Below, piece by piece: positions 48,826 through 64,000 of a stretch of 64,000 nt of DNA. The notes beneath the pieces are model-generated. The model was not told the DNA's origin, made no database searches, and saw only the letters and a list, made by a program, of their open reading frames with translations. The DNA is taken from IMG/VR virus record IMGVR_UViG_2718218133_000001. The stretch is one strand, 5' to 3'. The stretch comes from a virus (Duplodnaviria; Heunggongvirae; Uroviricota; Caudoviricetes). The translations under genes and the position numbers were made by a program. The stretch's first letter is position 1; every line of letters starts with the position of its first letter.

Positions 48826-50741
48826 GCCGCTACCCCCGCTTTCTGGATTGCTACCAACAGATCAGCCAGGTGGCGAGCTGCGCCGTTAACCAGCTCTTCG
48901 TTTTCCTCAAAACGTCCGGCAGCCTGAAGGGCTGCAATCGCTTCCCGGACATTGCCCCGGGCGTTACGGATCTCCGCCATGTCAGTGCTTTGTATATCCA
49001 TCACGTTATTGAGATATTCAATGGCTTTATTAGCCTCTGCATCTGCTTCGCTAACCGTTTCATCAGGCTGTGCCGTGGCCGGTTCTGGCTGAGTAATCTC
49101 ACCGACTTCGGCCTGCAATGCATTGATCATGCTCTGCACCATTTTCTCGGTGCCAGCGCCCCCCGGAAACGCAATATTGGGGAAAGTTTTTTGAAACTGA
49201 GTTTTCAGCATTACGCGGAACTCGTCTGGTGAGCTGGTGGCCAGCTCCAGAGCTTTTTGTGCATATTTGCCAAACGGACCATTAGTAAGTGTCTTCGCCA
49301 GGAAGTCGAAAGAATCCTCGCGAGGCAATAACTTCAGGTCGTACTCACTCATTTGCTGATCAGAAAGCGGGGTATCGTAAGTAGCAATGCCGTAGCGTGC
49401 ATATTCATAATACGGGTCACCTTCATCAGGGCGCGGCAGAATTGCTTTGTTACCTTCAGGTATTGCGCCAGGGGCCGCCGGACGCATTTGCAGGGCATAT
49501 CGATATGCACCTACAGAGACTTCTGGTTCAGGCGAAGAGCTACCGGTATCCTCCGCTGGTTCAGGTTCGACGTTTTCCGGTTTATGTTCTTCTGGTTGGA
49601 CCAGGTATTCCGATACATTACCCGCTTTATAGGCTTTAAACAGCTTGCCGATCGCATCTGCCATGTCCACACCCTGTATGGATTTAGCCTTGATCATGTA
49701 TACGCTGCCATCCGGATCGGTTAACTGGATATACCCTTCGCCGCCCCCAATGAATTGCTTCATTGATGCACCATTACTGAGCGTCACTTCCCCGTCCATA
49801 TGCATACGATTTTTGATACTGGCAAGGCGATCCGTCAGCGCGCGAGAGTGCCCACCAGTCATCCCCGCTGGAGCAATGGTATCGCGCCCACCAGTGCGAT
49901 TGAGCTGATCAATCTCCGTCTGCAAACGCTCATTCTCTTCATAAAGAGAATCCGCTTCCGATGCAACAGCGTTAATTTTCTGCTCCAGATCTGCCTTCTG
50001 CCCTTCTACCGCTGCCACCTGATCCGCGAGGTCGCTCATGGCATCCTCTTTCTGGTCACTGTCAGCCTGTAGTTGGGTTATTTCATCAACAAGGGCTTTT
50101 TTCTTCTTCTGCGCACGCTGGAATTTTGCCGAGTTTTTCTCTGCAAGGTTGGCAAGTTTCATGGTGACCTGCGCCAGCGTCATATCACGTCCACTCATCG
50201 GAGCAACGGTGTGAGTAACGTCTTTTTTATTCAGTAAGAACTGGAAAGCAACCAGCGTATCGCTATTGGTGATCCGGTTTTCCGCTGTCGGGCTATGAAA
50301 CAGAATGCTGATAGTCTGACCATCACTGAGCGGAATAATGGCTGGCAAGACCGGCAGCCCGTTAACGTTACGTGCCCGGCCAATTTCAGCGCCGCCGATC
50401 GCGCGCGCGCCGCTCTGGGCCACATCCCCCGTTTTATCACTCCCCGCAGAGATTCCGGTACCATTCAGCTTCTGGTTCAATGCCCGGACAAATGCCTGCA
50501 TGGTCCGGTGTAACTGCAAACGAGTAGAACTAATCGCCTCCAGTAAATCCGTAGCACACCAGTGGATCGGCGTGTCATAGAAGAACGTAGCCTCGATTTC
50601 CTCCAGGGTGTTGGATTCCGTCATCAGATAGCGGTCCTCACCGGCCATTAATGCGCGATATTCATCATCAGTCACTGGCGGGGGAAGCACGTCAAGCCCA
50701 GGCTTGATCGTCACCCCTTTATTGATATTGAACTGTTCCAT
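48822..50741 (-). CDS. darA: DarA antirestriction/head internal protein
   Basis: 639 aa, the size of P1 DarA. Confidence 0.8.
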   Translation of the reverse strand: MEQFNINKGVTIKPGLDVLPPPVTDDEYRALMAGEDRYLMTESNTLEEIEATFFYDTPIHWCATDLLEAISSTRLQLHRTMQAFVRALNQKLNGTGISAGSDKTGDVAQSGARAIGGAEIGRARNVNGLPVLPAIIPLSDGQTISILFHSPTAENRITNSDTLVAFQFLLNKKDVTHTVAPMSGRDMTLAQVTMKLANLAEKNSAKFQRAQKKKKALVDEITQLQADSDQKEDAMSDLADQVAAVEGQKADLEQKINAVASEADSLYEENERLQTEIDQLNRTGGRDTIAPAGMTGGHSRALTDRLASIKNRMHMDGEVTLSNGASMKQFIGGGEGYIQLTDPDGSVYMIKAKSIQGVDMADAIGKLFKAYKAGNVSEYLVQPEEHKPENVEPEPAEDTGSSSPEPEVSVGAYRYALQMRPAAPGAIPEGNKAILPRPDEGDPYYEYARYGIATYDTPLSDQQMSEYDLKLLPREDSFDFLAKTLTNGPFGKYAQKALELATSSPDEFRVMLKTQFQKTFPNIAFPGGAGTEKMVQSMINALQAEVGEITQPEPATAQPDETVSEADAEANKAIEYLNNVMDIQSTDMAEIRNARGNVREAIAALQAAGRFEENEELVNGAARHLADLLVAIQKAGVAA

Positions 50742-50742
50742 G

Positions 50743-51345
50743 TTAATTTCCTGCTTTCAGTTGCTTAAGACGGCGTTTGAGTTCGCCATTTCGGGCCTTT
50801 TCGTTATTGAGTCGGCCTGTCTCCTTATCCAGCTTCGCCCGCAAATCAGTGATCTGCTGTTGATTGAAAGACACCGAGTTCTGCGCTGATTTATAAGCGG
50901 CAACCACCTGAGCATTCCGCTGTTTTGCCTCTTGCAGGCGCTGAAAGTTGGATTTTACTGCCGGTTTCTTGTCTACCGGATTGGCAACACGTTTCGCTTT
51001 GGCGATCAGTGAGTTCTGGAATTTTGCGGAGTTTTTGCGGGCCGCTTGCCCCATGACGGTACCAAGCGTCTTGATATCCGGCGATTGAGCGTTAGGAATA
51101 GCTTTTCCATTCAGCCTCACAGACGATATATCGCCAGTATCGTTTACCTGTATGGCAAGAATTTGTCCGTCGTTAAGAACCAGCTTTGCGGTTTTAACTT
51201 TAACGCCATCTTTCGTTGTTGCGCGGTTGCTGGAGTCAACCTCAATTACCGTAACACCGGTTTTATTGATCGCCGCGATAAGGGATTTCAGCCCCTTTTC
51301 ATTAACCTGGTCAAAATCGACCGTTGCATACTTATTTTTCGTCAT
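50743..51345 (-). CDS. hdf: homolog of DarA fragment
   Basis: Shares KNSAKFQ..coiled-coil segment with DarA; ATG at 51345 has better RBS spacing than the track start. Confidence 0.5.
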   Translation of the reverse strand: MTKNKYATVDFDQVNEKGLKSLIAAINKTGVTVIEVDSSNRATTKDGVKVKTAKLVLNDGQILAIQVNDTGDISSVRLNGKAIPNAQSPDIKTLGTVMGQAARKNSAKFQNSLIAKAKRVANPVDKKPAVKSNFQRLQEAKQRNAQVVAAYKSAQNSVSFNQQQITDLRAKLDKETGRLNNEKARNGELKRRLKQLKAGN

Positions 51346-51775
51346 CTGACACATCCTGTGCGAGATTTATTACGTAACTTCTGCGGATTTGCTGAGTAAC
51401 AGGGAAAATCCGATACAACGGGTTAATGAACGAGTCGCCATGCGTAACCATGACGTTGAAATGCCACAGTCGCTCTCCTTTACCCATATATTCAGTGGGT
51501 ATGTACAACCATTCACTGTTTTCGCCCTGTTCAGCCGACGTCAAACAACGTTGTTCGCCTTCAATCACTGTCGTCGGCTTCTGAACATCGCGGATCCAAT
51601 ATCTGACCGTTGCGCCGCGCAAAAACGGGAATTTAGACCGGTATTTGAACGGCACCCGGATGAAACCCGGTTTAATTTCCACATCACCAAGTTCTAAATG
51701 CGTGATGTCCTTGCGTTTTAGCAAATAGCGATCGGCTAAGGCTAACGCAAGAACGCATACACCCCAGCCAATCAT
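51332..51775 (-). CDS. hypothetical protein with N-terminal hydrophobic segment
   Basis: 147-aa ORF. Confidence 0.3.
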   Translation of the reverse strand: MIGWGVCVLALALADRYLLKRKDITHLELGDVEIKPGFIRVPFKYRSKFPFLRGATVRYWIRDVQKPTTVIEGEQRCLTSAEQGENSEWLYIPTEYMGKGERLWHFNVMVTHGDSFINPLYRIFPVTQQIRRSYVINLAQDVSDDEK

Positions 51776-52101
51776 TTCCCGCCTCCCTTTTTCACCAAAC
51801 TTGTAAGAACATTCAGAATGCTATCGATATTCACTCGTTTCATCCCTGAAATCACCTCATGACCGTTATTGCTGGCTATCGTTACCATTAAGTACGTAAT
51901 TGATAACTCCCAGCCCTCGTGTTGCCCCAATAGGTACGCCACCGCGCCAGCTGTCACTGCAACAAAGATCTCCGTAACCAATCCCAACAAATTGCCAGAC
52001 TGGCGACCGTCTCGGACATCCATCAGGAACGTGCCTATCCCACCAATTACTGAAAGCAGGAGCGCAATAGCAACTGGAGCTAATTCCTGTGTGTCAAGCA
52101 C
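51772..52101 (-). CDS. holin-like membrane protein
   Basis: 109 aa; two or three predicted TM segments, charged C-terminus; may correspond to a P1 lyd gene. Confidence 0.4.
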   Translation of the reverse strand: MLDTQELAPVAIALLLSVIGGIGTFLMDVRDGRQSGNLLGLVTEIFVAVTAGAVAYLLGQHEGWELSITYLMVTIASNNGHEVISGMKRVNIDSILNVLTSLVKKGGGK

Positions 52102-52175
52102 AAGTTCCCTCCTACGTTGTCAGGAGGTAATGGTATGCAAAGTAACTTCTCAACCGGTTATGTTGCATAAGAGAC

Positions 52176-52439
52176 TTACCTATTCAACCGACTTTTGGAA
52201 CCTTCAATAATAAGCCTGCTATTGGCGCTGAAAATAAGAACCATGCAGCTCTGAAGGCTTTCATTCATATCCTTATATTCCGCGAGATACATGCCAATAA
52301 AGCCAGCAAGTACGGCGGAAATACATTCGGCCAGCAATTTCTTGCATGAAGACTCGTAACGGTTTTCACATAGCCCACTCAAATACGAATACACCCCACC
52401 AAGAAGGGATAACATCACGATATGTACATAAAATGTCAT
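52176..52439 (-). CDS. holin/antiholin-like membrane protein
   Basis: 87 aa, hydrophobic. Confidence 0.35.
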   Translation of the reverse strand: MTFYVHIVMLSLLGGVYSYLSGLCENRYESSCKKLLAECISAVLAGFIGMYLAEYKDMNESLQSCMVLIFSANSRLIIEGSKSRLNR

Positions 52440-52566
52440 TTTTTACCTATACAACAGTAAGTTGAACAACATCTGAGAACGGTATGCACTTTGTGATTTC
52501 CACACACACTGGTTTTGTTAATTAAAACCTGTAGCTTGCAATAAATAACGATAGTGGGCAGAAAAT

Positions 52567-52750
52567 ATGCTAATAGGCTATGTACGCATATAGACAAATG
52601 AACAAAACACAGCTATGCAGTGAAAAGCACTTGAAAGCGCAGGATGTGAGCTAATTTTTGCGAATAAGGCGAGCAGCAAAAAGGCTGGGCACCCTGGGTT
52701 AAAAAAGGTTCTGCGTATGCTTTCCAGAGGTGATACCCTAGTCTCGGGCT
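52567..52750 (+). pseudogene. decayed N-terminal fragment of a P1 Cin-type invertase gene
   Basis: ATGCTAATAGGCTATGTACGCATA then in-frame stops; after repair reads MLIGYVRI..STNEQNTA.Q..ALESAGCELIF..KKAGHPGLKKVLRMLSRGDTLV. Confidence 0.5.
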
Positions 52751-52874
52751 AGGGACAACATTTCGAGGACAGTTTTCATTAGCGGTCAGCAGGCGCTAGA
52801 TACATCGAATTGATGTGCCGCGCGATAAATGTACCTATTCTATCAAGATAAATTACACCGACGCGGCATTAGAA

Positions 52875-53447
52875 TTACAGCTCAGATTGAGTTTGGCGCT
52901 TCTCTACAGGATGATAACGATAAATCGTCGATACACCGATATCGTAAATAATTGCCAACTGTTTCCTGCTGTAGCCATTTTCGATCAACCTCGCTATTTG
53001 CTCATGTTGTTCTTTTGTCAACTTCGGGCGACGTCCGCCAATGCGTCCCTGTTCGCGTGCAGCTGCCAGTCCGGCCAGTGTTCTCTCAACAATTAATTCA
53101 CGTTCCATTTCTGCTAAAGCCCCCATGACGTGAAAAAAGAAACGCCCCATGGGTGTTGATGTGTCAATACTGTCTGTCAGACTACGGAAATTAACACCTT
53201 TTTCCCGCAACTCCTCTATAAGCGTGATAAGGTGTTTCATACTTCTGCCAAGCCTATCCAGCTTCCAGACAACCAGCGTATCTCCTTCTGATAACGTTCT
53301 GAGCAGCTTTTTCAAGCCTGGTCTGGCTGACTTTGTTCCGCTTATTTTATCTTCAAAAATCAGTTCACATCCTGCGCAGTTCAGTGCATTTCTTTGTAAA
53401 TCTGTGTTTTGGTCATTTGTTGACACACGAATGTAGCCAATTTGCAT
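52875..53447 (-). CDS. serine DNA invertase (Cin/Min/Gin/Hin family)
   Basis: 190 aa from ATG 53447; catalytic GYIRVSTNDQNTDLQ (Ser) and C-terminal HTH; adjacent to first crossover site. Confidence 0.85.
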   Translation of the reverse strand: MQIGYIRVSTNDQNTDLQRNALNCAGCELIFEDKISGTKSARPGLKKLLRTLSEGDTLVVWKLDRLGRSMKHLITLIEELREKGVNFRSLTDSIDTSTPMGRFFFHVMGALAEMERELIVERTLAGLAAAREQGRIGGRRPKLTKEQHEQIARLIENGYSRKQLAIIYDIGVSTIYRYHPVEKRQTQSEL

Positions 53448-53501
53448 GAAAAACAACCTCTTTGTTTAGTTAAAAATACATCGTTGGTATAGGTAGGGAT
53501 T

Positions 53502-53527
53502 AAGACTAAAACGTTGGTTTGGGGGAA
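53502..53527 (-). other. crossover site 1 (26 bp, core TT/AA at 53514-53515)
   Basis: Minus strand reads TTCCCCCAAACC-AA-CGTTTTAGTCTT, gix/cix-like half-sites. Confidence 0.55.
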
Positions 53528-53994
53528 GGCTCTGCATTGCCTGTTGGTGTACCTGTTCCATGGCCCTCAGCCACACCACCAACGGGGTGGCTAAAATGTA
53601 ACGGAGCAGCATTTTCTTCTGAAAAGTACCCAAATCTGGCAAAGGTTTACCCAACGTTAAAATTACCTGATTTACGCGGTGAGTTTATCCGTGGTTGGGA
53701 TGATGGGCGCGGGGTGGATGCGGGACGTGCTTTATTGAGCATTCAGACAGGAATGCTGGAAAAGCACCGACATATTGTTGTAGCCAATGATGGTTACGAC
53801 ACAAAAGATGAATGGGAGCTGGCGACAATTTTCAAAAAAACATACACACAAGGACGGGGCTTGATGCCTCAAATACAGGAGGGAATTTGATTCCATCACC
53901 GACACTTCATTCTCGAGGGAGTATTGGTAATACTGGCGGGAGTGAAACCCGTCCACGAAATATCGCATTTAATTACATCGTAAGGGCGGCATAA
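53516..53994 (+). pseudogene. promoterless tail-fibre tip cassette A, frameshifted
   Basis: Conserved N-term GEGSALPVGVPVPWP..; frame breaks near A7 run (~53832); conserved C-term ETRPRNIAFNYIVRAA in another frame. Confidence 0.4.
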
Positions 53995-54013
53995 AAACGT
54001 TGGTTTGGGGGAA
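53988..54013 (-). other. crossover site 2
   Basis: Same 26-bp pattern, core 54000-54001. Confidence 0.5.
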
Positions 54014-54502
54014 GGCTCTGCATTGCCTGTTGGCGTACCTGTTCCGTGGCCATCAGCCACACCTCCAACGGGGTGGCTGAAATGCAATGGTGCAGCATTT
54101 TCTTCTGAAAAGTACCCAAATCTGGCAAAGGCTTATCCCACCAATAAATTACCGGATTTACGGGGAGAATTTATTCGTGGCTGGGATGATGGGCGTGGCA
54201 TTGATCCTAGACGTGCCTTGCTAAGTCTTCAGAATGGAGGAGTGGAATCACACACCCACCAAGGGCAGCTCTTCAGAGTTAGTGATTATCGTACAAATGA
54301 AATACCAGCATCAGAAGTTATGGGAAGAAACTATCTTGCAAGCCTGACGCCGGGTGCTAATAGCCCACTTGATTTTGATGATTATCCTGTAGCTCTTATT
54401 CCAAATGGATATTTTGTCGGGAATCAGAGAACAACAGCATATGGGATAAATGAAACCCGTCCACGGAATATTGCATTTAATTACATCGTAAGGGCGGCAT
54501 AA
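54005..54502 (+). CDS. promoterless tail-fibre tip cassette B
   Basis: 165 aa; no ATG; conserved ends, unique middle. Confidence 0.5.
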   Translation: MGEGSALPVGVPVPWPSATPPTGWLKCNGAAFSSEKYPNLAKAYPTNKLPDLRGEFIRGWDDGRGIDPRRALLSLQNGGVESHTHQGQLFRVSDYRTNEIPASEVMGRNYLASLTPGANSPLDFDDYPVALIPNGYFVGNQRTTAYGINETRPRNIAFNYIVRAA

Positions 54503-54521
54503 AAACGTTGGTTTGGGGGAA
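54496..54521 (-). other. crossover site 3
   Basis: Core 54508-54509. Confidence 0.5.
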
Positions 54522-54941
54522 GGCTCTGCACTGCCTGTTGGTGTGCCCGTTCCGTGGCCCTTAGAAACACCACCAACGGGCTGGCTAAAATGTAACGGAG
54601 CAGCATTTTCTTCTGAAATGTATCCCAAACTGGCAAAAGCCTACCCCACCAATAAATTACCGGATTTACGCGGTGAATTTATCCGTGGCTGGGATGATGG
54701 GCGCGGGATTGATGCGGGACGTACCCTGCTTTCAGGGCAGGATGGTACAAGTTTTTCTCATTACGGAGGTAATTTCGACATTGGGTCTGGTCATTCAATC
54801 AATAACTATGACCAAATTGTTTCTAACCAACCAGGATTTTCCCGTTTTTCATTTGCAGGGCCTTCACGAGGTGATGGGGTTAATTATGTAACCATTCGTC
54901 CTCGTAACATTGCGTTTAATTATATCGTAAGGGCGGCATGA
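54513..54941 (+). CDS. promoterless tail-fibre tip cassette C
   Basis: 142 aa; conserved ends, unique middle. Confidence 0.5.
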   Translation: MGEGSALPVGVPVPWPLETPPTGWLKCNGAAFSSEMYPKLAKAYPTNKLPDLRGEFIRGWDDGRGIDAGRTLLSGQDGTSFSHYGGNFDIGSGHSINNYDQIVSNQPGFSRFSFAGPSRGDGVNYVTIRPRNIAFNYIVRAA

Positions 54942-54960
54942 AAACGTTGGTTTGGGAGAA
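54935..54960 (-). other. crossover site 4
   Basis: Core 54947-54948. Confidence 0.5.
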
Positions 54961-55449
54961 GGCTCTGCATTACCTGTTGGTGTCCCTGTTCCGTGGCCTT
55001 CAGCCACTCCGCCAACAGGCTGGCTGAAATGCAACGGTGCGGCTTTTTCTGCTGAAGAATACCCGGAACTGGCAAAGGCTTACCCGACAAATAAATTGCC
55101 TGATTTACGTGGTGAGTTCATTCGTGGCTGGGATGACGGGCGCGGGATTGATCCAGGTCGCTCTATTTTAAGCGAGCAAGGATATGCAACGGAGGATCAT
55201 GCTCACGGATTACCGTCAAAATCAACCGTAGCAACTGACAGCTCAATTAATTTCTACTTTGACGAGGCATGGGCTACTAGTGGTAATACGGGAGTTATCA
55301 GATGGGGGAACACAAGCGATGCAGGATTGCCAGCCCCTAATTATGGAACTTTTAAAACATATAAACAGTCCGTAGCTAATTTAGGTACTGCTGGCTTAGA
55401 AACCCGCCCTCGTAATATTGCATTTAATTATATTGTGAGGGCGGATTAA
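54952..55449 (+). CDS. promoterless tail-fibre tip cassette D
   Basis: 165 aa. Confidence 0.5.
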   Translation: MGEGSALPVGVPVPWPSATPPTGWLKCNGAAFSAEEYPELAKAYPTNKLPDLRGEFIRGWDDGRGIDPGRSILSEQGYATEDHAHGLPSKSTVATDSSINFYFDEAWATSGNTGVIRWGNTSDAGLPAPNYGTFKTYKQSVANLGTAGLETRPRNIAFNYIVRAD

Positions 55450-55454
55450 TTATA

Positions 55455-56066
55455 TCAACTGGCTGTAGAAAGTTGTTTTTCAGGCCAGTTGAGATCTGGT
55501 GCCGTGGTTAAATCCATCGCGTTCAGCTCGTCTATATAATCTAGCACGGAGTTAAGCTGCGTGGTTTCTGCCTGCGTCAACTTCCGTCCAGCCCGTAATT
55601 TCAACTGAATCAGACTAATGGAATCCATCGCAGTATCAATCAATGACTGACGTTTTGTTTCTGCTGCCTCTACAGCTGCACTATGTTGAGCCTCAGTATC
55701 AACCACCCATTTCTCTCCATCCCATTTGTCGTATGGTGTTAGCGGGGCGATAGTGGTTGTATTTTCCGGATAGTCACCCAACACCGTGATTTCTTCGGGA
55801 TTCCCTGTGTCAATGCTATAGACAGTTTCGCCACGATGATCTGGCACATACTCCCATGAACTTAAATCCTCTGAACGGAGAATCGCATAACCTGCTTTAT
55901 GTGAGCCTGGAGCATCCAAACAAGAATGTGCCGGAATACCAACGCCAACAGCAAGATATTCAGTTGATGCAGAAATATATTCCCGATTACCACCATCATA
56001 GTTATAAACGATAATGTTTCCTGCCTGTATGGCTATAAGTTCGCTATTTAATATCGCATTATCCAT
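55455..56066 (-). CDS. tail fibre assembly chaperone (Tfa/U-like)
   Basis: 203 aa; start overlaps stop of cassette E (TAATG). Confidence 0.65.
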   Translation of the reverse strand: MDNAILNSELIAIQAGNIIVYNYDGGNREYISASTEYLAVGVGIPAHSCLDAPGSHKAGYAILRSEDLSSWEYVPDHRGETVYSIDTGNPEEITVLGDYPENTTTIAPLTPYDKWDGEKWVVDTEAQHSAAVEAAETKRQSLIDTAMDSISLIQLKLRAGRKLTQAETTQLNSVLDYIDELNAMDLTTAPDLNWPEKQLSTAS

Positions 56067-56524
56067 TATGCTGCTCTCACAATATAATTGAAGGCAATGT
56101 TACGTGGGCGGGTTTCATTCCCCCCAGATAACTCCGTTCTGTATTGACTGGTAAATTTACCATTAATCGCTCCTTCTTGGACGGCGTTATCTGTCGACAA
56201 CAGGCTATCCCCCCCTCTGTCATTTGGCACCAATACCGTGTTATCCCACGCGTCCCATGACCGAATATTATGATAATGACTTCCTGTTAACCACCCCTGT
56301 ATGCTTAAGATGACCCTTCCCGCATCCACACCTCGCCCATCATCCCAACCACGGATAAACTCACCGCGTAAATCAGGTAATTTTAACGTTGGGTAAACCT
56401 TTGCCAGATTTGGGTACTTTTCAGAAGAAAATGCTGCGCCATTGCATTTCAGCCACCCCGTTGGAGGTGTGGCTGATGGCCACGGAACGGGCACGCCAAC
56501 GGGCAGTGCAGAGCCTTCCCCCAA
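56066..56524 (-). CDS. tail-fibre tip cassette E (coupled to tfa)
   Basis: 152 aa; same conserved ends. Confidence 0.5.
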   Translation of the reverse strand: MGEGSALPVGVPVPWPSATPPTGWLKCNGAAFSSEKYPNLAKVYPTLKLPDLRGEFIRGWDDGRGVDAGRVILSIQGWLTGSHYHNIRSWDAWDNTVLVPNDRGGDSLLSTDNAVQEGAINGKFTSQYRTELSGGNETRPRNIAFNYIVRAA

Positions 56525-56541
56525 ACCAACGTTTTATGCCG
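56516..56541 (+). other. crossover site 5
   Basis: TTCCCCCAAACC-AA-CGTTTTATGCCG; opposite orientation to sites 1-4. Confidence 0.5.
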
Positions 56542-56797
56542 CCCTTACGATGTAATTAAATGCAATGTTACGAGGACGATGGTTACATATTACGACCATC
56601 AATCGTGAATGTCCAGTATAATGAAAAACTCAATAATTCCGTCTTAGGCTGTAGATAATACTTGTCATAGTTATGATTGAATGACCAGACTCAATGTCGA
56701 AATTACCTCCGTAAAGAAAACAATATGTCTGATCCTGCCATTCTGAATAGCAGTACGTCCAGATCAATCCCCGCCCATCATCCCAGCCGCGATAAAT
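56530..56797 (-). pseudogene. degenerate remainder of cassette F (C-type) currently joined to S
   Basis: DNA alignable to cassette C but with indels; S reading frame stops early at 56798. Confidence 0.4.
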
Positions 56798-59377
56798 TCA
56801 CCCGTAAATCCGGTAATTTATTGTGGGTAGCCTTTGCCAGTTTGGGATACTTTCAGAAGAAAATGCTGCACCGTTGCATTTCAGCCACCCCGTTGGAGGT
56901 GTGGCTGATGGCCACGGAACGGGCACGCCAACAGGCAGTGCAGAGCCTTCCCCCAAACCAAGGTAATTAAGAACGCTCTGAATACTGGGCTTACTAAGAA
57001 TTGCACGTCCAACACTTGTCAGTGCAGTTAACGCGGCACGATCAACCCCTGTGAAATAAGGGAGTTTATCTGCTGCGGTAGCTAGTGCCGCTAGAGCAGT
57101 GAGCGTAGCGTCTGCCGCTTGCTTTCCATTAGCCAAATCATATGCAGCCTTGACAGCTTTCGGTGTAGCGGCCAGCACTTCAGACGTGCTGTTAGTGGCA
57201 CTACTGAGCTGAGTGATGCCTTTCGCTGTCAATGAAGCTGTTGGCACACCAGTAATCTGATTCCAGGGATGTGTATGACTGGATGGTGCTTTTTCGGCTG
57301 CTAGATCGTATGCAGCTTTAACCGCTTTTGGCGTTGCAGCTAATGTTTCAGAAGTGCTGTTGGTGTCGCTACTGAGCTGAACTATCCCTTTTTGTGTCGT
57401 GGTTGCATCCTGGGCTGTATACTTCCCGTTAGCCAGGTCATATGCAGCCTTGACAGCTTTCGGTGTGGCGGCCAGCACTTCAGACGTGCTGTTAGTGGCA
57501 CTACTGAGCTGAGTGATGCCTTTCGCTGTCAATGAAGCTGTTGGCACACCAGTGATCTGATTCCAGGGATGTGTATGACTGGATGGTGCCTTTCCGGCTG
57601 CTAGATCGTATGCAGCTTTAACCGCTTTTGGCGTTGCAGCTAATGTTTCAGAAGTGCTGTTGGTGTCGCTACTGAGCTGAACTATCCCTTTTTGTGTCGT
57701 GGTTGCATCCTGGGCTGTATACTTCCCGTTAGCCAGGTCATATGCAGCCTTGACAGCTTTCGGTGTGGCGGCCAGCACTTCAGACGTGCTGTTAGTGGCA
57801 CTACTGAGCTGAGTGATGCCTTTCGCTGTCAATGAAGCTGTTGGCACACCAGTGATCTGATTCCAGGGATGTGTATGACTGGATGGTGCCTTTCCGGCTG
57901 CTAGATCGTATGCAGCTTTAACTGCTTTTGGCGTTGCAGCTAATGTTTCAGAAGTGCTGTTGGTGTCGCTACTGAGCTGAACTATCCCTTTTTGTGTCGT
58001 GGTTGCATCCTGGGCTGTATACTTCCCGTTAGCCAGGTCATATGCAGCCTTGACAGCTTTCGGTGTGGCGGCCAGCACTTCAGACGTGCTGTTAGTGGCA
58101 CTACTGAGCTGAGTGATGCCTTTCGCTGTCAATGAAGCTGTTGGCACACCAGTGATCTGATTCCAGGGATGTGTATGACTGGATGGTGCCTTTCCGGCTG
58201 CTAGATCGTATGCAGCTTTAACCGCTTTTGGCGTTGCAGCTAATGTTTCAGAAGTGCTGTTGGTGTCGCTACTGAGCTGAACTATCCCTTTTTGTGTCGT
58301 GGTTGCATCCTGGGCTGTATACTTCCCGTTAGCCAGGTCATATGCAGCCTTGACAGCTTTCGGTGTGGCGGCCAGCACTTCAGACGTGCTGTTAGTGGCA
58401 CTACTGAGCTGAGTGATGCCTTTCGCTGTCAATGAAGCTGTTGGCACACCAGTGATCTGATTCCAGGGATGTGTATGACTGGATGGTGCCTTTCCGGCTG
58501 CTAGATCGTATGCAGCTTTAACCGCTTTTGGCGTTGCAGCTAATGTTTCAGAAGTGCTGTTGGTGTCGCTACTGAGCTGAACTATCCCTTTTTGTGTCGT
58601 GGTTGCATCCTGGGCCGTATACTTCCCGTTAGCCAGGTCATATGCAGCCTTGACAGCTTTCGGTGTGGCGGCCAGCACTTCGGACGTGCTGTTAGTAGCA
58701 CTGCTGAGCTGAACTAATCCCTTTTGCGTTGTGCTTGCATCCTGCGCCGTATACTTGCTTTTCGCCAGATCGTAGGCTTTTTTAACTGCCAGCGAACTTG
58801 CAGCGACATCACTTCTGGTACTGGTTACAGAGTCGGAAATTTCAATGCCTATCGTGAGATCGATGCGGTCGGATACATCTATCATTTCCTGAGTAATAGC
58901 AGATACGCCAGCAGGGATATTCACCGTACAAACAAGCAGTTCCCCATCTCCTAACTGATATGAATCGGTATAGGTTCTGGCAACAAATTCAGCTGCATGA
59001 ATATGTGACGCGGTATTCACCTGATAGGTATCTTCTCCAAGAAGGTATCTTCCCTTCAGCACAATTGCATATTTCTTGCCTGCGTTAAGTGCAAGAGAGA
59101 TATCCTTACGATGCTGAATAGTTACCTGGTAGAATTCACCAATATCCACTGACGCCGCGCCAGCGGTTTTATCTCCATCCACTGAGGTGATTAACAGGTT
59201 CATCCCACCGCCAGGCTTAGGCAAGAAACCAGCATAAAATCCCGGGTCAACAATTCCCCTGAATTTTCGGTTTAGAGCGGCTGACAGATATGGTTCGTGG
59301 TATTGCACATCAGCCACCAGAGCCAACGACTCGGGTGATGGGTAAGTAACCGATGTAACAACTGTAACGTCATTCAT
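56798..59377 (-). CDS. tail fibre protein S (current configuration fused to cassette F)
   Basis: 859 aa from ATG 59377 (AAGGA RBS); tail-fibre repeats KAVKAAYDLA..TTQKGIVQLSS; C-terminus ends prematurely inside cassette F. Confidence 0.8.
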   Translation of the reverse strand: MNDVTVVTSVTYPSPESLALVADVQYHEPYLSAALNRKFRGIVDPGFYAGFLPKPGGGMNLLITSVDGDKTAGAASVDIGEFYQVTIQHRKDISLALNAGKKYAIVLKGRYLLGEDTYQVNTASHIHAAEFVARTYTDSYQLGDGELLVCTVNIPAGVSAITQEMIDVSDRIDLTIGIEISDSVTSTRSDVAASSLAVKKAYDLAKSKYTAQDASTTQKGLVQLSSATNSTSEVLAATPKAVKAAYDLANGKYTAQDATTTQKGIVQLSSDTNSTSETLAATPKAVKAAYDLAAGKAPSSHTHPWNQITGVPTASLTAKGITQLSSATNSTSEVLAATPKAVKAAYDLANGKYTAQDATTTQKGIVQLSSDTNSTSETLAATPKAVKAAYDLAAGKAPSSHTHPWNQITGVPTASLTAKGITQLSSATNSTSEVLAATPKAVKAAYDLANGKYTAQDATTTQKGIVQLSSDTNSTSETLAATPKAVKAAYDLAAGKAPSSHTHPWNQITGVPTASLTAKGITQLSSATNSTSEVLAATPKAVKAAYDLANGKYTAQDATTTQKGIVQLSSDTNSTSETLAATPKAVKAAYDLAAGKAPSSHTHPWNQITGVPTASLTAKGITQLSSATNSTSEVLAATPKAVKAAYDLANGKYTAQDATTTQKGIVQLSSDTNSTSETLAATPKAVKAAYDLAAEKAPSSHTHPWNQITGVPTASLTAKGITQLSSATNSTSEVLAATPKAVKAAYDLANGKQAADATLTALAALATAADKLPYFTGVDRAALTALTSVGRAILSKPSIQSVLNYLGLGEGSALPVGVPVPWPSATPPTGWLKCNGAAFSSESIPNWQRLPTINYRIYG
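56948..56973 (+). other. crossover site 6 at S constant/variable junction
   Basis: TTCCCCCAAACC-AA-GGTAATTAAGAA; left half-site identical to site 5. Confidence 0.5.
57111..58760. repeat. about 5.5 tandem copies of a 300-bp unit inside S
   Basis: Unit boundaries at 57121/57421/57721/58021/58321/58621; copies 2-5 differ by only a few bases. Confidence 0.85.
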
Positions 59378-59388
59378 CAAGCATATCC

Positions 59389-59823
59389 TTATGCTGTAGT
59401 CGAGTTTATGGCCATAACTGCGGTATATGTTTTGCCCACATACAGCGAGTCTTCCTGGACACAAATAATGGCGATTGGCTTATTCTCGTTATCCAGAACA
59501 ACCAGAGTGTTGAATGGGTAGTTTTTCCCTTCCTGCAACTGACTTTGATCAAGGTCCATTCGGACAGTAATTATCCCGCCTGAGTAGGTTGGGACGAGGT
59601 TGATGGTGCAAAATTGACTGGTCAGTTCTGCCAGATCGAAAGCCTTTGGCAGTTCTCCAATCTCATAAGTGCCATCTCCTTTCTTAGTAACCAGTGAACT
59701 GGTACCGAAAACGGCCTTGCTGATTAAAAATCGAGAGCCTTTGTTAATGGACGATTCAGCGCGCCGCTGATAGTAATAGTCCAACAACTGACTCTTATAG
59801 AGGTTTGTTGAGACGTCAGACAT
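59389..59823 (-). CDS. tail/baseplate protein upstream of S
   Basis: 144 aa; position corresponds to P1 R. Confidence 0.35.
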   Translation of the reverse strand: MSDVSTNLYKSQLLDYYYQRRAESSINKGSRFLISKAVFGTSSLVTKKGDGTYEIGELPKAFDLAELTSQFCTINLVPTYSGGIITVRMDLDQSQLQEGKNYPFNTLVVLDNENKPIAIICVQEDSLYVGKTYTAVMAINSTTA

Positions 59824-59875
59824 GATTTTCCCTAATCAATGTTGTGAAGCCTCATTGTAAGATAAGTAACTTGTC

Positions 59876-59894
59876 ACCCCGCCCTGCGGACGGG
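59876..59894. terminator. hairpin ccccgccctgcggacgggg
   Basis: Between the two upstream minus-strand genes; possible attenuator. Confidence 0.35.
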
Positions 59895-59901
59895 GTGATT
59901 G

Positions 59902-60621
59902 TCACGCATCGCTATCCAACAGCAAATCATCTGCGCGGGTGCGATCAAACGTAGGCGTTGCTTTCACAATAGTGCCACCAGGCGTTGCGGTGATCGGGGC
60001 GCTAATCGACGTAACTCCAGTAAGCGAAGTTGTATCCGAAGTTTCAAACCAGCAGAATGCTTTTTCGGTATCAGAAATCTCGTTCAAAGTGATCATGTCG
60101 GCCTGTTCATTTACAACAACCGACAAATAGAGCGTAAGCCCATCAAACACTATATGCAGTGGCAGTAGAGGCTTTACGAACTGATTAAACTTTCTGAGAA
60201 TTTCTTCTGTAATTGCGGACTGATCTATCGTTCCAGTAATACCCATTGTCCGGGCCAGGTCGTTTATGGGAATACTGATCATTCCTCTGGAAGTCAGAAA
60301 CATCTCGCCGAATGTGCCGCCGGTGGTTTCCAGTGTGCTTTCTGGAATCAGGACCGTACCATAGGGATGACGTTCAAAGTCCACCGGAGCATATATGGGA
60401 TCCCATAAAACCGATATACCGTTAAATTCGCGATAAATTGTCTGGTTTATAGGGCGTTCAGTGCCCTTAAAATGGATCTCATCAAACCGCTGTTGTAGCA
60501 ACATCGGAACGGAAGATGAATTCGACGTTCTGATAGTAAAAAACTGGCCAAGTTCATTTGTCCTGGTCTCCAGATCCTCCTTGCTCATGGAGAAAATAGA
60601 CTTCCGGTTGGTAGTCAACAA
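59902..60621 (-). CDS. baseplate protein, hypothetical
   Basis: 239-aa ORF within baseplate module. Confidence 0.35.
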   Translation of the reverse strand: MLTTNRKSIFSMSKEDLETRTNELGQFFTIRTSNSSSVPMLLQQRFDEIHFKGTERPINQTIYREFNGISVLWDPIYAPVDFERHPYGTVLIPESTLETTGGTFGEMFLTSRGMISIPINDLARTMGITGTIDQSAITEEILRKFNQFVKPLLPLHIVFDGLTLYLSVVVNEQADMITLNEISDTEKAFCWFETSDTTSLTGVTSISAPITATPGGTIVKATPTFDRTRADDLLLDSDA

Positions 60622-60720
60622 AGGTGTCCATCATTGACTGAACCAAATCAGCCAATGATTTATAAAGTAATGACTTTTGCTTAGCTGATGTAAGCCGGTT
60701 ATTAAACCAGGAACGCTGCA

Positions 60721-62154
60721 TCACTCCTCCTCATACGAAATATTAAAGGTGGAGTTTTCTGTATCCAGATAAACGAAATCGTAAAAGCCGTTGGACTCAT
60801 TCCACTCGACAAATTCCAGATAAAAGTCGCGGAAATAGCCCAGCGTTTCGATAAACGCCCAAACGTCTTTTTTCTTAATCAGGATGTACTTTCCGACGCG
60901 GTTCGGATCAAAGAAAGTTGAGTCGCGCCCAAATTTTGTTTCCAGTGCCGACTTCAGCTCATCGGTCACGTTCTCAATGGTCAGGCTTGCCGATATTCGC
61001 CCGGTGATGGTGATCTTAAAGGGTAGTTTTCTGACCTCTTTATACGAAAATTTCTTGTTCAACTCATTCGGCACCTTCTTAAAAGCGGCCAGGATCATTT
61101 CCTCAAGCTCTGACTGACTTTTATTCGGATGCCATCCTGAAATAAATATCTTATTGATATTCCGAACATTATAAGCACCATCTAATTTCTCTTGCTGGCC
61201 TTCGCCCCATGCCTTTACCCAGGACAGTCCCGGGATGTTACGCACCAGAAAATACGTATAGTCCCCGCCCCATACGACCTGATCATCATAGGCAAGGTAA
61301 TATTGTGCACGATTACGTGTGATCTCCGTTGTTTCGGCATCGGTACCTGCGGTTATGGGTGTCGTTGTCTTAACTGAAATCAAATTAGCTAAATTAGCCG
61401 CAGAATCGACAGGCGTCAGATTTTGGCCAGCAACCAAGGTTATATCTCCGTTGGTGCACCATACCTTAAGTGTAATGGTCGAGCCTTCTGGCGGTATTTG
61501 CCCAATTAGCCCATCACCGAATCGAACCCCCAACTGCTCGGATGGTTTATAAAACTCAACGTAGACCTGGCTTTTACTACCGGCTAACCGGAACATAGTG
61601 CTGGAAGACCACTGCGTGGTCTTACCATCGGTCGTCACGAATACTTCCAGCTTATAGCAGACAGCAGTGAGAGCCTTTGATAACACGACTTCCAGAAATT
61701 CTTTGGCTGCCGTAACGGTATATGTCACCTCCTGGATTTCCAACTGTGCCACTTCTACCGTACCGGTGCCGTCAACCAACCTGCATACATCCATAGTCAT
61801 GTAAGGGTACTGGTCGTCAGATATTAAAGGCATATTTTTGGGGATTACCGCTGGGGCATCTTCACTTGTGGCGGTGATCTCAATCATCCCCGATGACGGT
61901 GTTGGCTTGGTACCAACGTAACTATTCGTTTCTGCCGCTGCCAGGATAGAGGAACGCCGCGTCGCGGTCGATATAAAGCCTTCAGCCAGCGCCGCATCGG
62001 CATACTGAAAGCACCTGTAGACAATCTGGGTAATAAACAATGTCAGCATCGAGACAAATTGAGAGCCGACAAACTTCGACCAGAATGAATCTTTCTCGAC
62101 AAGCTCTTCAAACTCTGCACGAATACTGTCTTTAGTCGGTGTTGTTTTACTCAT
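60721..62154 (-). CDS. baseplate wedge protein (gpJ/gp6-like)
   Basis: 477 aa; position corresponds to P1 bplA. Confidence 0.4.
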   Translation of the reverse strand: MSKTTPTKDSIRAEFEELVEKDSFWSKFVGSQFVSMLTLFITQIVYRCFQYADAALAEGFISTATRRSSILAAAETNSYVGTKPTPSSGMIEITATSEDAPAVIPKNMPLISDDQYPYMTMDVCRLVDGTGTVEVAQLEIQEVTYTVTAAKEFLEVVLSKALTAVCYKLEVFVTTDGKTTQWSSSTMFRLAGSKSQVYVEFYKPSEQLGVRFGDGLIGQIPPEGSTITLKVWCTNGDITLVAGQNLTPVDSAANLANLISVKTTTPITAGTDAETTEITRNRAQYYLAYDDQVVWGGDYTYFLVRNIPGLSWVKAWGEGQQEKLDGAYNVRNINKIFISGWHPNKSQSELEEMILAAFKKVPNELNKKFSYKEVRKLPFKITITGRISASLTIENVTDELKSALETKFGRDSTFFDPNRVGKYILIKKKDVWAFIETLGYFRDFYLEFVEWNESNGFYDFVYLDTENSTFNISYEEE

Positions 62155-62510
62155 AGCACCACGTCCTGTGTGATAGTTATATCCCTGATACGAATGGATA
62201 TTTTCAACTTATCAAAAGCATCTCCCTCGGCTACTGACAAGCCAGAAATCGGTATGTCAGGTAAATCTACCGTCAGTTTTTGCAACAGCATTGCCTCAAC
62301 CGCAATTTGAACATGCGACAAGTTGGTCGGTTCGTGTTTAAACTGCGGTAAAACATTGCCCCATGACGGATCTCCGTATACCTCACCCTGATAAGTGTTT
62401 AGCCACTCATATAAACGAGCGCCCCAGGCCTCCTCCTGGGACTCATACGTTTTTACGCCGGATAACTCCAGCGTCAGCAAAGGATCAATTTCGTTATTGT
62501 TGGCCATCAA
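62151..62510 (-). CDS. baseplate protein (gpW/gp25-like size)
   Basis: 119 aa; coupled overlaps on both sides. Confidence 0.3.
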   Translation of the reverse strand: MMANNNEIDPLLTLELSGVKTYESQEEAWGARLYEWLNTYQGEVYGDPSWGNVLPQFKHEPTNLSHVQIAVEAMLLQKLTVDLPDIPISGLSVAEGDAFDKLKISIRIRDITITQDVVL

Positions 62511-64000
62511 TCAACTCTCGCGTAGTCATTCATCAACGGATCATCAATTGACAGTGGTACCGTGCGCATAACGCCCGGCTGAGGCGTGCTGACCTTTACG
62601 ACAGTTCCCTGGCCTTTCGCCGAGTCTTTGGTGTGCTCTTCAATCCTGGCAAGCAATGAGGTCATCTGCGCAAACAGCCGCTTCGTTTCACCATCAAGTG
62701 AAACGGTATTATCAGCCAACTGCATTGTCGGCTTGGCACCGGAACCGCCAAGGTCACTAATAACCTGCCCGTCTATCTGCATACGACCGGTTGGTTGCTG
62801 CAAATCGTTGGCGACAGTCGTCATCTGGGACGTGGAAGCTGGTTGAGGAGAATTATTTGAGCGCATTCCCCGGGCATTAATGAGTTTGTCATACAGTCCA
62901 TCAATCCCCATTTGTGCGCCGAGCTGGTCAAAGTAACTTGAGTTGTTGGCCACCGGACGTGCCTCTTCAACTGGCATAGGTGTATCAACATACACATTGC
63001 CAGCTGCCGTTGCGGTTCCCCTTCCTCGTGCACGTTCTTCGAGGGTTCCCTGGACGACTTCCCGACGCATCCCCCGGCCATTCATGAATTTGTTGACCAG
63101 ATCGTTAACGCCAACAGCATTGCCGATTTTGTCTACCAGACCGCCTTTCTCAAACGGGCTATCACCAGGGGTAAACGCCAGACCAGTAGACTGATCGATA
63201 ACAGCGTTATCAGGCAGTGGTCCCCTCACTCCATATTGCGCCCCACCCTGTGCTCCTGCCCCAGGTGTATAGATTTCACCACCTAAATAGCGAGCACGAT
63301 GAGTATTGACCTTGATCGCGTACTCACGGTTTTCTTTCGATAAGTCACCTGTGCCTTTTTTCCACTTATTGATAGTGCCAAACCCTGCGTTATATGCAGT
63401 GATGGCCTCGTTTAAGTCTCCATTGGCTTGCTTCAGATACTTGCTCATGAGAAGAGCCGCAGCTTCTGCCGATTTCACAGGATCAAATGCATCCTGTTCC
63501 GATATCCCTGTCTCTTTACGAGCAATACTCGTGAACTGGAACATCCCGAGTGCGCCACCACTTAACTTTCCATCTGGTGATCTTGTAAGCGGAGACTTTG
63601 CGTTAGGATCCCCTCCTGATTCAGTTGCAGCAATCGCGTAAAGAGTGCCTTCTGGAAGACCATATTTATTCTCTAGTTCAGCAAAATATGGAGCCAACTT
63701 ATCGAGATTTGCCTTACCTTCAGCGCCAAGACTTCCTACTTTTACATCCAAGTTGCCATTGTTGTAGGTATCCGCAGCTTTCTGAATATCATTCCTGGTT
63801 CCAGTAGTATTACGCGACGATGATGACGAGCTATTTTGACCAATAGCTTTATCAATTTTCTGCAACGCGCTATTGCCCGTTTCTACAGCATTTGCATTGA
63901 TTATCTGATTGGCAGTTTCTTTAACTGTTTTATTGCTATCTTTCGCCGTATCTAGAGATGCATTTACAACACGAGTGACAATATTAGCCTTTTTAGAGGT
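62507..64000 (-). CDS. sit: Sit-like tail protein with lytic transglycosylase (SLT) domain, 5'-truncated by window edge
   Basis: SLT motif region YAIAATESGGDP..GALGMFQF..AYNAGFG; P1 Sit is far longer, so the gene runs past the window end. Confidence 0.6.
   Translation of the reverse strand, partial: TSKKANIVTRVVNASLDTAKDSNKTVKETANQIINANAVETGNSALQKIDKAIGQNSSSSSSRNTTGTRNDIQKAADTYNNGNLDVKVGSLGAEGKANLDKLAPYFAELENKYGLPEGTLYAIAATESGGDPNAKSPLTRSPDGKLSGGALGMFQFTSIARKETGISEQDAFDPVKSAEAAALLMSKYLKQANGDLNEAITAYNAGFGTINKWKKGTGDLSKENREYAIKVNTHRARYLGGEIYTPGAGAQGGAQYGVRGPLPDNAVIDQSTGLAFTPGDSPFEKGGLVDKIGNAVGVNDLVNKFMNGRGMRREVVQGTLEERARGRGTATAAGNVYVDTPMPVEEARPVANNSSYFDQLGAQMGIDGLYDKLINARGMRSNNSPQPASTSQMTTVANDLQQPTGRMQIDGQVISDLGGSGAKPTMQLADNTVSLDGETKRLFAQMTSLLARIEEHTKDSAKGQGTVVKVSTPQPGVMRTVPLSIDDPLMNDYARVD

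Follow-up and report, generated by a model that had tools for sequence, protein, structure and literature searches.

Gene S of the window (the whole 64-kb stretch of DNA that we analysed) is a tail-fibre gene located on the minus strand, which corrects the initial annotation of the locus, and the gene order is gp16 (PF26903) – R (PF26881) – S, downstream of which lie an invertible tip region and an invertase, as in P1. The location proposed for gene S in the initial annotation is borne out: the open reading frame comes after the R homologue and gp16, R and the 5′ part of S share 95.9% nucleotide identity with P1 over 1716 nt, and the matching stretch in the P1 and P7 records is annotated S/Sc. 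The S product matches PF03406 (Phage_fiber_2) in 12 stretches at 726.9 bits (cut-off 22, E = 7e-225), and among solved structures the nearest to it is that of the Mu tail fibre protein S (5YVQ/9KI1), aligned across one such repeat. As judged from its sequence, the host element is a P1/p15B-like phage-plasmid, with a tandem array in Sc, the constant part of its P1-type gene S. The features of the gene and its array are as follows:

59389–59823, minus strand: gene R homologue (PF26881), directly upstream of S
56798–59377, minus strand: gene S in its present form, 859 aa from MNDVTVV; equals AOM73521.1 / WP_433913868.1 on CP015837.1
57122–58712, minus strand: tandem array inside Sc of gene S, period 300 nt, 5.3 copies (Tandem Repeats Finder; repeat family D1; unit differences)
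58646–58777, minus strand: element a′, 44 aa, AYDLAKSKYTAQDASTTQKGLVQLSSATNSTSEVLAATPKAVKA; a diverged ‘a’ copy matching P1 a0/a1
58346–58645, minus strand: unit 1 (a, 44 aa, plus B, 56 aa), private SNP at 58616
58046–58345, minus strand: unit 2, same sequence as unit 4
57746–58045, minus strand: unit 3, private SNP at 57923
57446–57745, minus strand: unit 4, same sequence as unit 2
57146–57445, minus strand: unit 5, terminal B allele with four SNPs (57294, 57290, 57254 and 57167), one of which gives G to E
56966–57145, minus strand: end of Sc, a partial ‘a’ head (AYDLANGK...) and then unique sequence up to the crossover site

The near-identical 300-bp tandem repeats that had been reported in gene S are confirmed by Tandem Repeats Finder, which finds a single tandem array in the 64-kb window (98% matches, 0% indels, score 3091); since this is the only such array, chance is not a credible explanation for it. 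The array itself stands as first described, with its extent revised from about 5.5 copies to 5.3. In ungapped comparison the 300-nt units starting at 57422, 57722, 58022 and 58322 are 0–2 nt apart pairwise and the unit starting at 57122 shows 9 differences, while the 300-nt stretches that flank the array are unrelated to the unit (83/300 and 153/300 matches). Re-phasing the units on the protein repeat yields five complete units between 58645 and 57146, and the upstream limit of the array is set by the last ~67 nt of a′, which match the end of B. The n = 5 for the window is taken from one deposited assembly. That each unit encodes two fibre repeats was correctly noted at the outset (both are Phage_fiber_2 repeats), as were the peptide strings quoted for them, which are present in the units; the repeats are, however, 44 aa (‘a’) and 56 aa (‘B’) long rather than about 50 aa each. 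Likewise, the units do differ by a few bases, but the marker position is 57923 and not 57911. The peptides from the five units are alike save for one G to E in unit 5, the terminal B allele of which is also found in the relatives L084 and L087. A conserved H-T-H in element B may form a metal site resembling the His boxes of T4 gp37. AlphaFold2, run on a 250-aa stretch comprising a′ and two units (monomer, without alignment), gave an unusable model (pLDDT of 40.6, pTM of 0.25).

Two further candidates for a function at the array were rejected. The opposite strand carries only periodic 41–47-aa ORFs and no other long ORF, which leaves no coding role for it. Chi was considered as a local stimulus of recombination: the window contains 47 Chi sites, with none beyond position 49240.

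Beside the array lies the invertible region, in which we find six matches to the crossover-site consensus (four on the plus strand and two on the minus strand) against 0 expected, each heading an Sv-like segment:

56946–56965, minus strand: crossover (mix-like) site at the junction of Sc and the invertible region, one of the six matches
56514–56533, minus strand: fifth further crossover site
56066–56524, minus strand: intact alternative Sv segment with a Collar domain
53510–54962, plus strand: four crossover sites (53510, 53996, 54504 and 54943), each heading an alternative Sv segment
52875–53456, minus strand: serine invertase (Resolvase + HTH_7), adjoining the invertible region

The intact Sv segment is followed by a tail-fibre assembly gene (55455–56066), and relatives differ in the order of the segments adjoining Sc. 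The exact sequence of the invertase had no match in the protein collection searched. As a separate observation, the Sv segment that is now fused to Sc (56534–56945, minus strand) is garbled: its best homologues are 84–86% identical with 17 gap openings, and an identical copy was not found in PLSDB. Fusion of this segment to Sc results in a premature stop at 56798 and thus in a truncated S, and so the S allele of the window may, in its present configuration, not yield a working fibre. The garbling and the frameshift (56500–57000 and 53800–53900) may be real, or may be artefacts of a consensus drawn from a mixture of inversion isomers.

In complete relatives the array is (a+B)n, n being 1, 3, 4, 4.5, 5 or 6, and the repeat frame is kept in every read-through S ORF. 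Reading the arrays directly, we find n = 1 in L086, L089 and L098; n = 3 in L085, L093, L096 and L097; n = 4 in L083, L094 and L095, with n = 4 plus an extra a in L092; n = 5 in L084, L087, L088 and L099; and n = 6 in L091. The distribution among the 60 best RefSeq complete E. coli records (with n taken from gene spans; about 135 RefSeq records of complete P1-like plasmids have at least 80% coverage) is dominated by n = 5 (38/60), followed by n = 3 (11/60) and n = 1 (9/60), with one record each at 4.5 and 6; among the top 40 matches in PLSDB the implied n is 5 in about 23, 3 in seven, 1 in seven and 4 in three. The comparison of S length among related phage-plasmids, as suggested in the initial annotation, thus reveals variation from one to six units, always in frame. 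Copy number also differs on identical 5′ flanks: in one set with 0 differences over the 1012 nt compared (the first 732 nt of S and the 280 nt before it) n is 2, 3, 5 and 6, and in another it is 1, 4 and 5. Assemblies or derivatives of the same strain (UPEC957C, strain 405, SHP24 and the 2020N21-110 set) share n, which indicates that any switching is not very frequent.

The distribution of alleles within and between arrays bears on how the units came to be so alike. Several arrays carry private variants in most or all of their units – a[8T,9T,113T] in 4/4 units of L095, a[113T] in 4/4 units of L092, B[59T] in 4/4 units of L083 and B[9T,59T] in 4/5 units of L099 – and the six units of L091 are all identical; such array-private variants indicate concerted evolution. 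L087 reads aB aB aB1 aB aB1, i.e. it contains an internal duplicate of the terminal allele, a pattern that points to duplication of a 600-bp block in an n = 3 pattern. L088 has a higher-order period of 600 bp, and one B allele of L084 is a chimera of B1 and B0. The n = 1 genes contain a ~90-nt direct repeat (92–93% identical, spaced 300 nt), from which the first duplication may have started. The presumed ancestral single-copy arrangement is seen in Yersinia phage vB_YpM_39, whose fibre has one a and one B at ~79% nucleotide identity.

Taken together, we consider it probable (roughly 0.85) that the array is an in-frame series of 100-aa modules that changes copy number by recombination or slippage between units, thereby changing the length of the fibre shaft. 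The proposed mechanism is an in-frame amplification of the module (the 44-aa ‘a’ plus the 56-aa ‘B’) in the shaft-forming Sc, in which out-of-register homologous recombination or replication slippage between the 300-bp units would raise or lower n, and the same exchange or slippage process – presumably RecA-dependent in the case of exchange – would keep the units homogeneous. As 300 is a multiple of 3, every copy-number variant still encodes a complete fibre. The shaft would become longer or shorter by one or more 100-aa modules per chain, with a possible effect on adsorption or host range, and the receptor-binding tip would be supplied separately by the downstream Min-type invertible segments. 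The recent expansion and the length change by unequal recombination that were initially suggested agree with n values of 1–6 in relatives, differing n on identical flanks and the array-private SNPs. However, the near-identity of the units can also stem from continuing homogenisation and not from one recent burst alone. The low divergence of the units between plasmids could reflect horizontal spread of the module besides expansion in place.

A related view is that selection for discrete fibre lengths keeps n essentially constant, and that the units are near-identical because a young module has spread horizontally between P1-like backbones, not because of ongoing instability within lineages. We consider this unlikely. 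Between plasmids the units differ by 0.65% and the 5′ part of S by 2.25%, in L093 the same array precedes a C-terminal region of unrelated sequence, 58 of the 60 best RefSeq rows have n = 1, 3 or 5, and n is kept among same-strain derivatives, all of which would fit fixed lengths and spread. Set against this, identical flanks are found with different n, private SNPs are common to all units of an array, and block duplications and chimeric units exist; all of these observations call for exchange inside the array. Both views may hold at once. A bolder extension would make the array a fast and reversible ‘length dial’ for the shaft, paired with the Min shufflon, with the excess of odd n and the 600-bp blocks reflecting a structural preference for steps of two units; this is quite unlikely. 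If it were true, a single lysogen population would yield virions that vary both in tip (by inversion) and in shaft length (in ±300-bp or ±600-bp steps), the shaft would be as long as suits the depth of the O-antigen or capsule layer of the host, and the odd-n excess (58/60 RefSeq rows) and 600-bp duplications would not be due to shared descent alone.

The initial annotation had also called the array a classic place for assembly collapse, and for drafts this holds: of the 16 IMG/VR contigs carrying this type of S, 11 stop at the array or within it, and the five that read through it have no more than two units each. An assembly artefact, in which the array is real but its n in the window results from collapse or expansion, could draw on these broken drafts and on the garbled look of the tip segment that adjoins the array in the window record. 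It is nevertheless very unlikely to account for the five units, given that n = 5 is the commonest state (38 of the 60 best RefSeq complete records), that the unit-specific SNPs at 58616 and 57923 and the terminal allele shared with L084 and L087 are unlike the outcome of collapse or copy-paste expansion, and that repeated assemblies from the same strains give the same n. Finally, because the array adjoins a six-site inversion system, the repeats might be thought of as a targeted diversification device (DGR-like) or as a substrate of the site-specific invertase, by Min-mediated rearrangement within the array. This reading is effectively refuted: the peptides of the five units are identical save for the one G to E and thus generate no diversity, the array contains no match to the crossover site even with 2 mismatches allowed, and the opposite strand holds nothing beyond the short periodic ORFs.

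Recombination or slippage between in-frame modules stays our preferred reading. On this reading the array shows plainly, but in a way that is not unusual, how recombination between repeats lengthens and shortens a fibre shaft, and it is no new kind of system. Its practical consequence lies in assembly: short-read assemblies of P1-like phage-plasmids break or collapse at the array and the invertible region, and the gene S lengths in draft genomes are therefore not to be trusted. Typing and comparison of these clinically common P1-like elements need long reads at the array. As a natural case, the locus also illustrates cleanly both concerted evolution and change of copy number in the shaft of a phage fibre, and the alleles of 1 to 6 units are well suited for testing shaft length against adsorption, a question relevant to engineers of P1 or tailocin fibres. 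A description of copy-number variation in P1-like S genes was not found in the literature searched.

Repeated elements in Sc are already known, as the P1 record annotates a0 (36 bp), a1 (132 bp), b1 and b2 there (M81956, AF234172). The window shares with P1 the gene, the position and the 132-bp ‘a’, its a′ corresponding to P1 a0 plus a1, and P1 too has a tandem pair in Sc (b1/b2, 222 bp each). P1 differs in having a single ‘a’, no ‘B’ and two diverged copies of ‘b’, whereas the window has no ‘b’ and carries (a+B) amplified five times at 99–100% identity. Repeated elements in Sc of P1 gene S were reportedly described by Sandmeier, Iida and Arber in J Bacteriol in 1992, and the 1992 abstract on p15B is said to speak of sequence amplifications yielding mosaics of partially related repeated elements. 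For p15B (X62121) the comparison is indirect: the identities between window and P1 at four landmarks (96%, 89–90%, 84–85% and 83%) are the values that the P1 record gives for p15B, and the window has the Min-type arrangement of six crossover sites with an adjacent resolvase-family invertase. The interval between landmarks is, however, 4821 nt in p15B coordinates and 5335 nt in the window, and from this 514-nt difference it follows that the array or the Min region has another length in p15B.

Outside the P1 group, Mu protein S (PDB 5YVQ, 9KI1) has the repeat motif ..KG.VQLSSATNS.SE..AATPKAVK.. and aligns over one repeat, and in Yersinia phage vB_YpM_39 the fibre has a single a and a single B, ordered as in the window; in both fibres the elements are single or diverged, and they lack a homogeneous multi-copy array. 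Among bacterial surface proteins, the streptococcal alpha C and Rib proteins have long identical coding repeats, the number of which is changed by recombination, altering the length of a surface-exposed fibre, although they belong to another protein family and organism, and their role there is immune evasion, which has no bearing on the present array. In Enterococcus phage EfV12-phi1, in-frame tandem duplications in a tail fibre arise during co-evolution (PMC6365445). As with the present array, the receptor-binding part of a long fibre is preceded by near-identical in-frame copies, whose number varies between molecules and which generate no sequence diversity (PMC6365445). The EfV12-phi1 unit is 1.8 kb long, originated in the laboratory within days and is linked to infectivity (PMC6365445), whereas the unit described here is 300 bp long and the variation is between natural plasmids.

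The only tandem array that Tandem Repeats Finder detects within the 64-kb window lies at 57122-58712 (period 300, 5.3 copies, 98% matches, no indels), and an independent repeat search recovered five 300-nt copies again, with a 132/168-nt sub-periodicity nested inside the units. These results bear out the initial annotation, which had flagged a near-identical 300-bp array in a tail-fibre gene, and correct its details: the copies number 5.3 and not 5.5, the marker SNP lies at 57923 and not at 57911, the gene runs on the minus strand, and, while each unit does encode two fibre repeats, these are 44 and 56 aa long and not about 50 aa each. As judged by unit-by-unit comparison, the four inner units show 0-2 differences, the unit at 57122 shows 9, and the flanks are unrelated to the 300-nt units; chance cannot account for the array.

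The array occupies the constant part (Sc) of gene S. The gene and the invertible tip region, with six crossover sites in the window in all as compared to 0 expected, are laid out as follows.

59377-56798, minus strand: ORF with the array (gene S), 859 aa from MNDVTVV
53510, 53996, 54504 and 54943, plus strand: crossover sites (AACGTTGGTTTGGGRGAAGG)
56514 and 56946, minus strand: crossover sites (AACGTTGGTTTGGGRGAAGG)
56534-56945, minus strand: garbled alternative tip (Sv) segment fused to Sc, stop codon at 56798-56800

Homologues of P1 R and gp16 sit upstream of the S ORF; R and the 5' part of the ORF share 95.9% identity with P1 across 1716 nt, and the matching stretch carries the S/Sc annotation in the P1 and P7 records. 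Pfam detects 12 Phage_fiber_2 repeats in the S protein (E = 7e-225), with a Collar domain beginning at its end. The protein reads, in order, as an N-terminal domain, a' (a diverged a copy, 44 aa), five units of a (44 aa) + B (56 aa) and an incomplete a, after which a short run of unique sequence leads up to the crossover site; it is exactly AOM73521.1 of the 98,242-bp E. coli replicon CP015837.1. The 90% protein cluster that holds it has as its representative an unrelated 477-aa neighbour (window 60721-62154, minus strand), apparently a quirk of the clustering; many records call this neighbour 'bleomycin hydrolase', whereas NZ_AP040221.1 has 'baseplate J/gp47 family'.

Each of the six crossover sites heads a tip segment starting GEGSALPVGVPVPWP, and a gene for tail-fibre assembly and one for a serine invertase also lie downstream of S. 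Aligned with its best intact homologue, the Sv segment fused to Sc is 84-86% identical (47 mismatches, 17 gap openings), with several 1-nt deletions shortly past the crossover site, and S as deposited is therefore truncated, ending early in ..SSESIPNWQRLPTINYRIYG (stop). No identical copy of this segment was found in PLSDB; it may be a decayed pseudo-segment or, if inversion isomers were mixed in the population that was sequenced, a consensus artefact. A second alternative tip segment (53519-54005, plus strand) carries a single frameshift near 53860: frame 0 ends in ..TQGRGLMPQIQEGI (stop), and the +2 frame runs on as GLDASNTGG...RPRNIAFNYIVRAA, the intact ending found in CP088419.1 (L083).

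Matches to the S gene were found in 531 PLSDB plasmids and in records of 640 of the 5426 complete E. coli genomes, with a few in Klebsiella, Salmonella and Shigella; the whole constant part is common to about 100-135 of the PLSDB and complete E. coli matches. Comparing S length among relatives, as had been proposed, we found that the number of a+B units (n) varies from 1 to 6 in complete records, with the repeat frame kept in every relative's S ORF read.

Copy number among relatives (L numbers). Direct readings cover 17 complete records; several of the RefSeq and PLSDB rows share a strain with another row, and their counts are not independent.
Direct, n = 1: L086, L089, L098
Direct, n = 3: L085, L093, L096, L097
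Direct, n = 4: L083, L094, L095
Direct, n = 4 plus an extra a: L092
Direct, n = 5: L084, L087, L088, L099
Direct, n = 6: L091
Gene spans, 60 best RefSeq records: n = 5, 38; n = 3, 11; n = 1, 9; n = 4, 0; n = 4.5, one; n = 6, one
Gene spans, PLSDB top 40: n = 5, about 23; n = 3, 7; n = 1, 7; n = 4, 3; other, none

Of the 60 best RefSeq rows, 58 have an odd value (1, 3 or 5); n = 4 was found in three of the PLSDB top 40, and n = 2 in one draft contig only. The odd-n excess may come from common ancestry, or two-unit (600-bp) steps may be preferred.

The warning that such an array invites assembly collapse proved justified for drafts: 11 of the 16 contigs with this S type in IMG/VR, which holds mostly draft assemblies, stop at or inside the array (L007, L008, L012-L015, L020, L022, L043, L054, L055), and the five that read through it contain no more than two units, as compared to five, the commonest state in complete plasmids. 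Short-read assemblies are no reliable guide to the length of S. Draft contigs of P1-type S also often stop about 450-530 codons into S, which we take to be due to inverted repeats of the invertible region. That the window's own five copies are genuine is argued for by two unit-specific SNPs (58616 in unit 1, 57923 in unit 3), by a distinctive terminal allele that the window shares with L084 and L087, and, among other records, by the agreement on n wherever one strain was assembled more than once.

Four kinds of sequence pattern speak for unequal exchange among the units, the route by which copy number had been predicted to change. Genes with 0 differences over 280 nt upstream and the first 732 nt of S nevertheless have n = 2, 3, 5 or 6, and a second such set has n = 1, 4 or 5; copy number thus shifts faster than point substitutions accumulate. 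Array-private variants are present in most or all units of their array, a hallmark of concerted evolution: a[8T,9T,113T] in 4/4 units of L095, a[113T] in 4/4 of L092, B[59T] in 4/4 of L083 and B[9T,59T] in 4/5 of L099, with all six units identical in L091. Exchange footprints are also seen: L087 reads aB aB aB1 aB aB1, its terminal allele recurring internally, the pattern expected if a 600-bp block of an n = 3 array were duplicated; L088 has a higher-order period of 600 bp; and one B allele of L084 is a chimera of terminal and internal alleles. Genes with n = 1 carry a direct repeat of ~90 nt (92-93% identical, spaced 300 nt), formed by the a'-tail/a-head and B-tail/next-head junctions, which gives the first duplication a substrate to act on. 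Since the distant fibre of Yersinia phage vB_YpM_39 (L100) has a single a and a single B, ordered as in the units (about 79% nucleotide identity), the module is old and its amplification lineage-specific.

Going by what is generally known of tandem repeats, the pathway would be RecA-dependent exchange or slippage; neither a Chi site near the array nor an invertase crossover site inside it was found. Chi (GCTGGTGG) occurs 47 times in the window (1.7 expected), always within 1-49240, and is absent from 49241-64000, the last 14.7 kb with the invertase, fibre and baseplate genes; a high density of Chi has been described for P1. Array units differ by 0.65% between plasmids as compared to 2.25% for the 5' part of S, which suggests that the module may also move between backbones. 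In NZ_CP067237.1 (L093) the C-terminal region joined to the same a/B array (n = 3) is unrelated, and two assembly genes, one annotated tfaE, lie just downstream; in vB_YpM_39 a P1-type 'b' element comes after the single a-B pair. The fibre is a mosaic whose modules can be exchanged.

Apart from one G to E change, the peptides encoded by the five units are identical, and the array therefore creates no sequence diversity; it likely affects the length of the trimeric shaft that would link the N-terminus, which binds the baseplate, to the exchangeable tip. The H-T-H motif of element B, kept in vB_YpM_39 (SNHTHSW), is reminiscent of the His boxes that bind metal in other fibres. The sequence search turned up one solved relative only, Mu protein S, which aligns over one repeat, and monomer structure prediction of the array repeats was unusable (pLDDT 40.6). 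In Enterococcus phage EfV12-phi1, in-frame, copy-variable fibre duplications arose in the laboratory and were linked to infectivity (PMC6365445).

The six-site layout of the window is like the multiple-inversion (Min) system of p15B and unlike the two-site C segment of P1, and at four landmarks the window reproduces the p15B identity values noted in the P1 record. The interval between two common landmarks is 514 nt shorter in p15B coordinates than in the window, so p15B differs in length at some point within the array or the Min region. The P1 record lists the Sc repeated elements a0 (36 bp), a1 (132 bp), b1 and b2 (222 bp each), a1 being the counterpart of the window's a'. A 1992 comparison of p15B with P1 reportedly described sequence amplifications in the S/Sc region. 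No description of copy-number polymorphism among modern P1-like plasmids was found in the literature searched, and such polymorphism is what repeats of this sort would be expected to show. We rate the array as already known in kind and largely also in instance.
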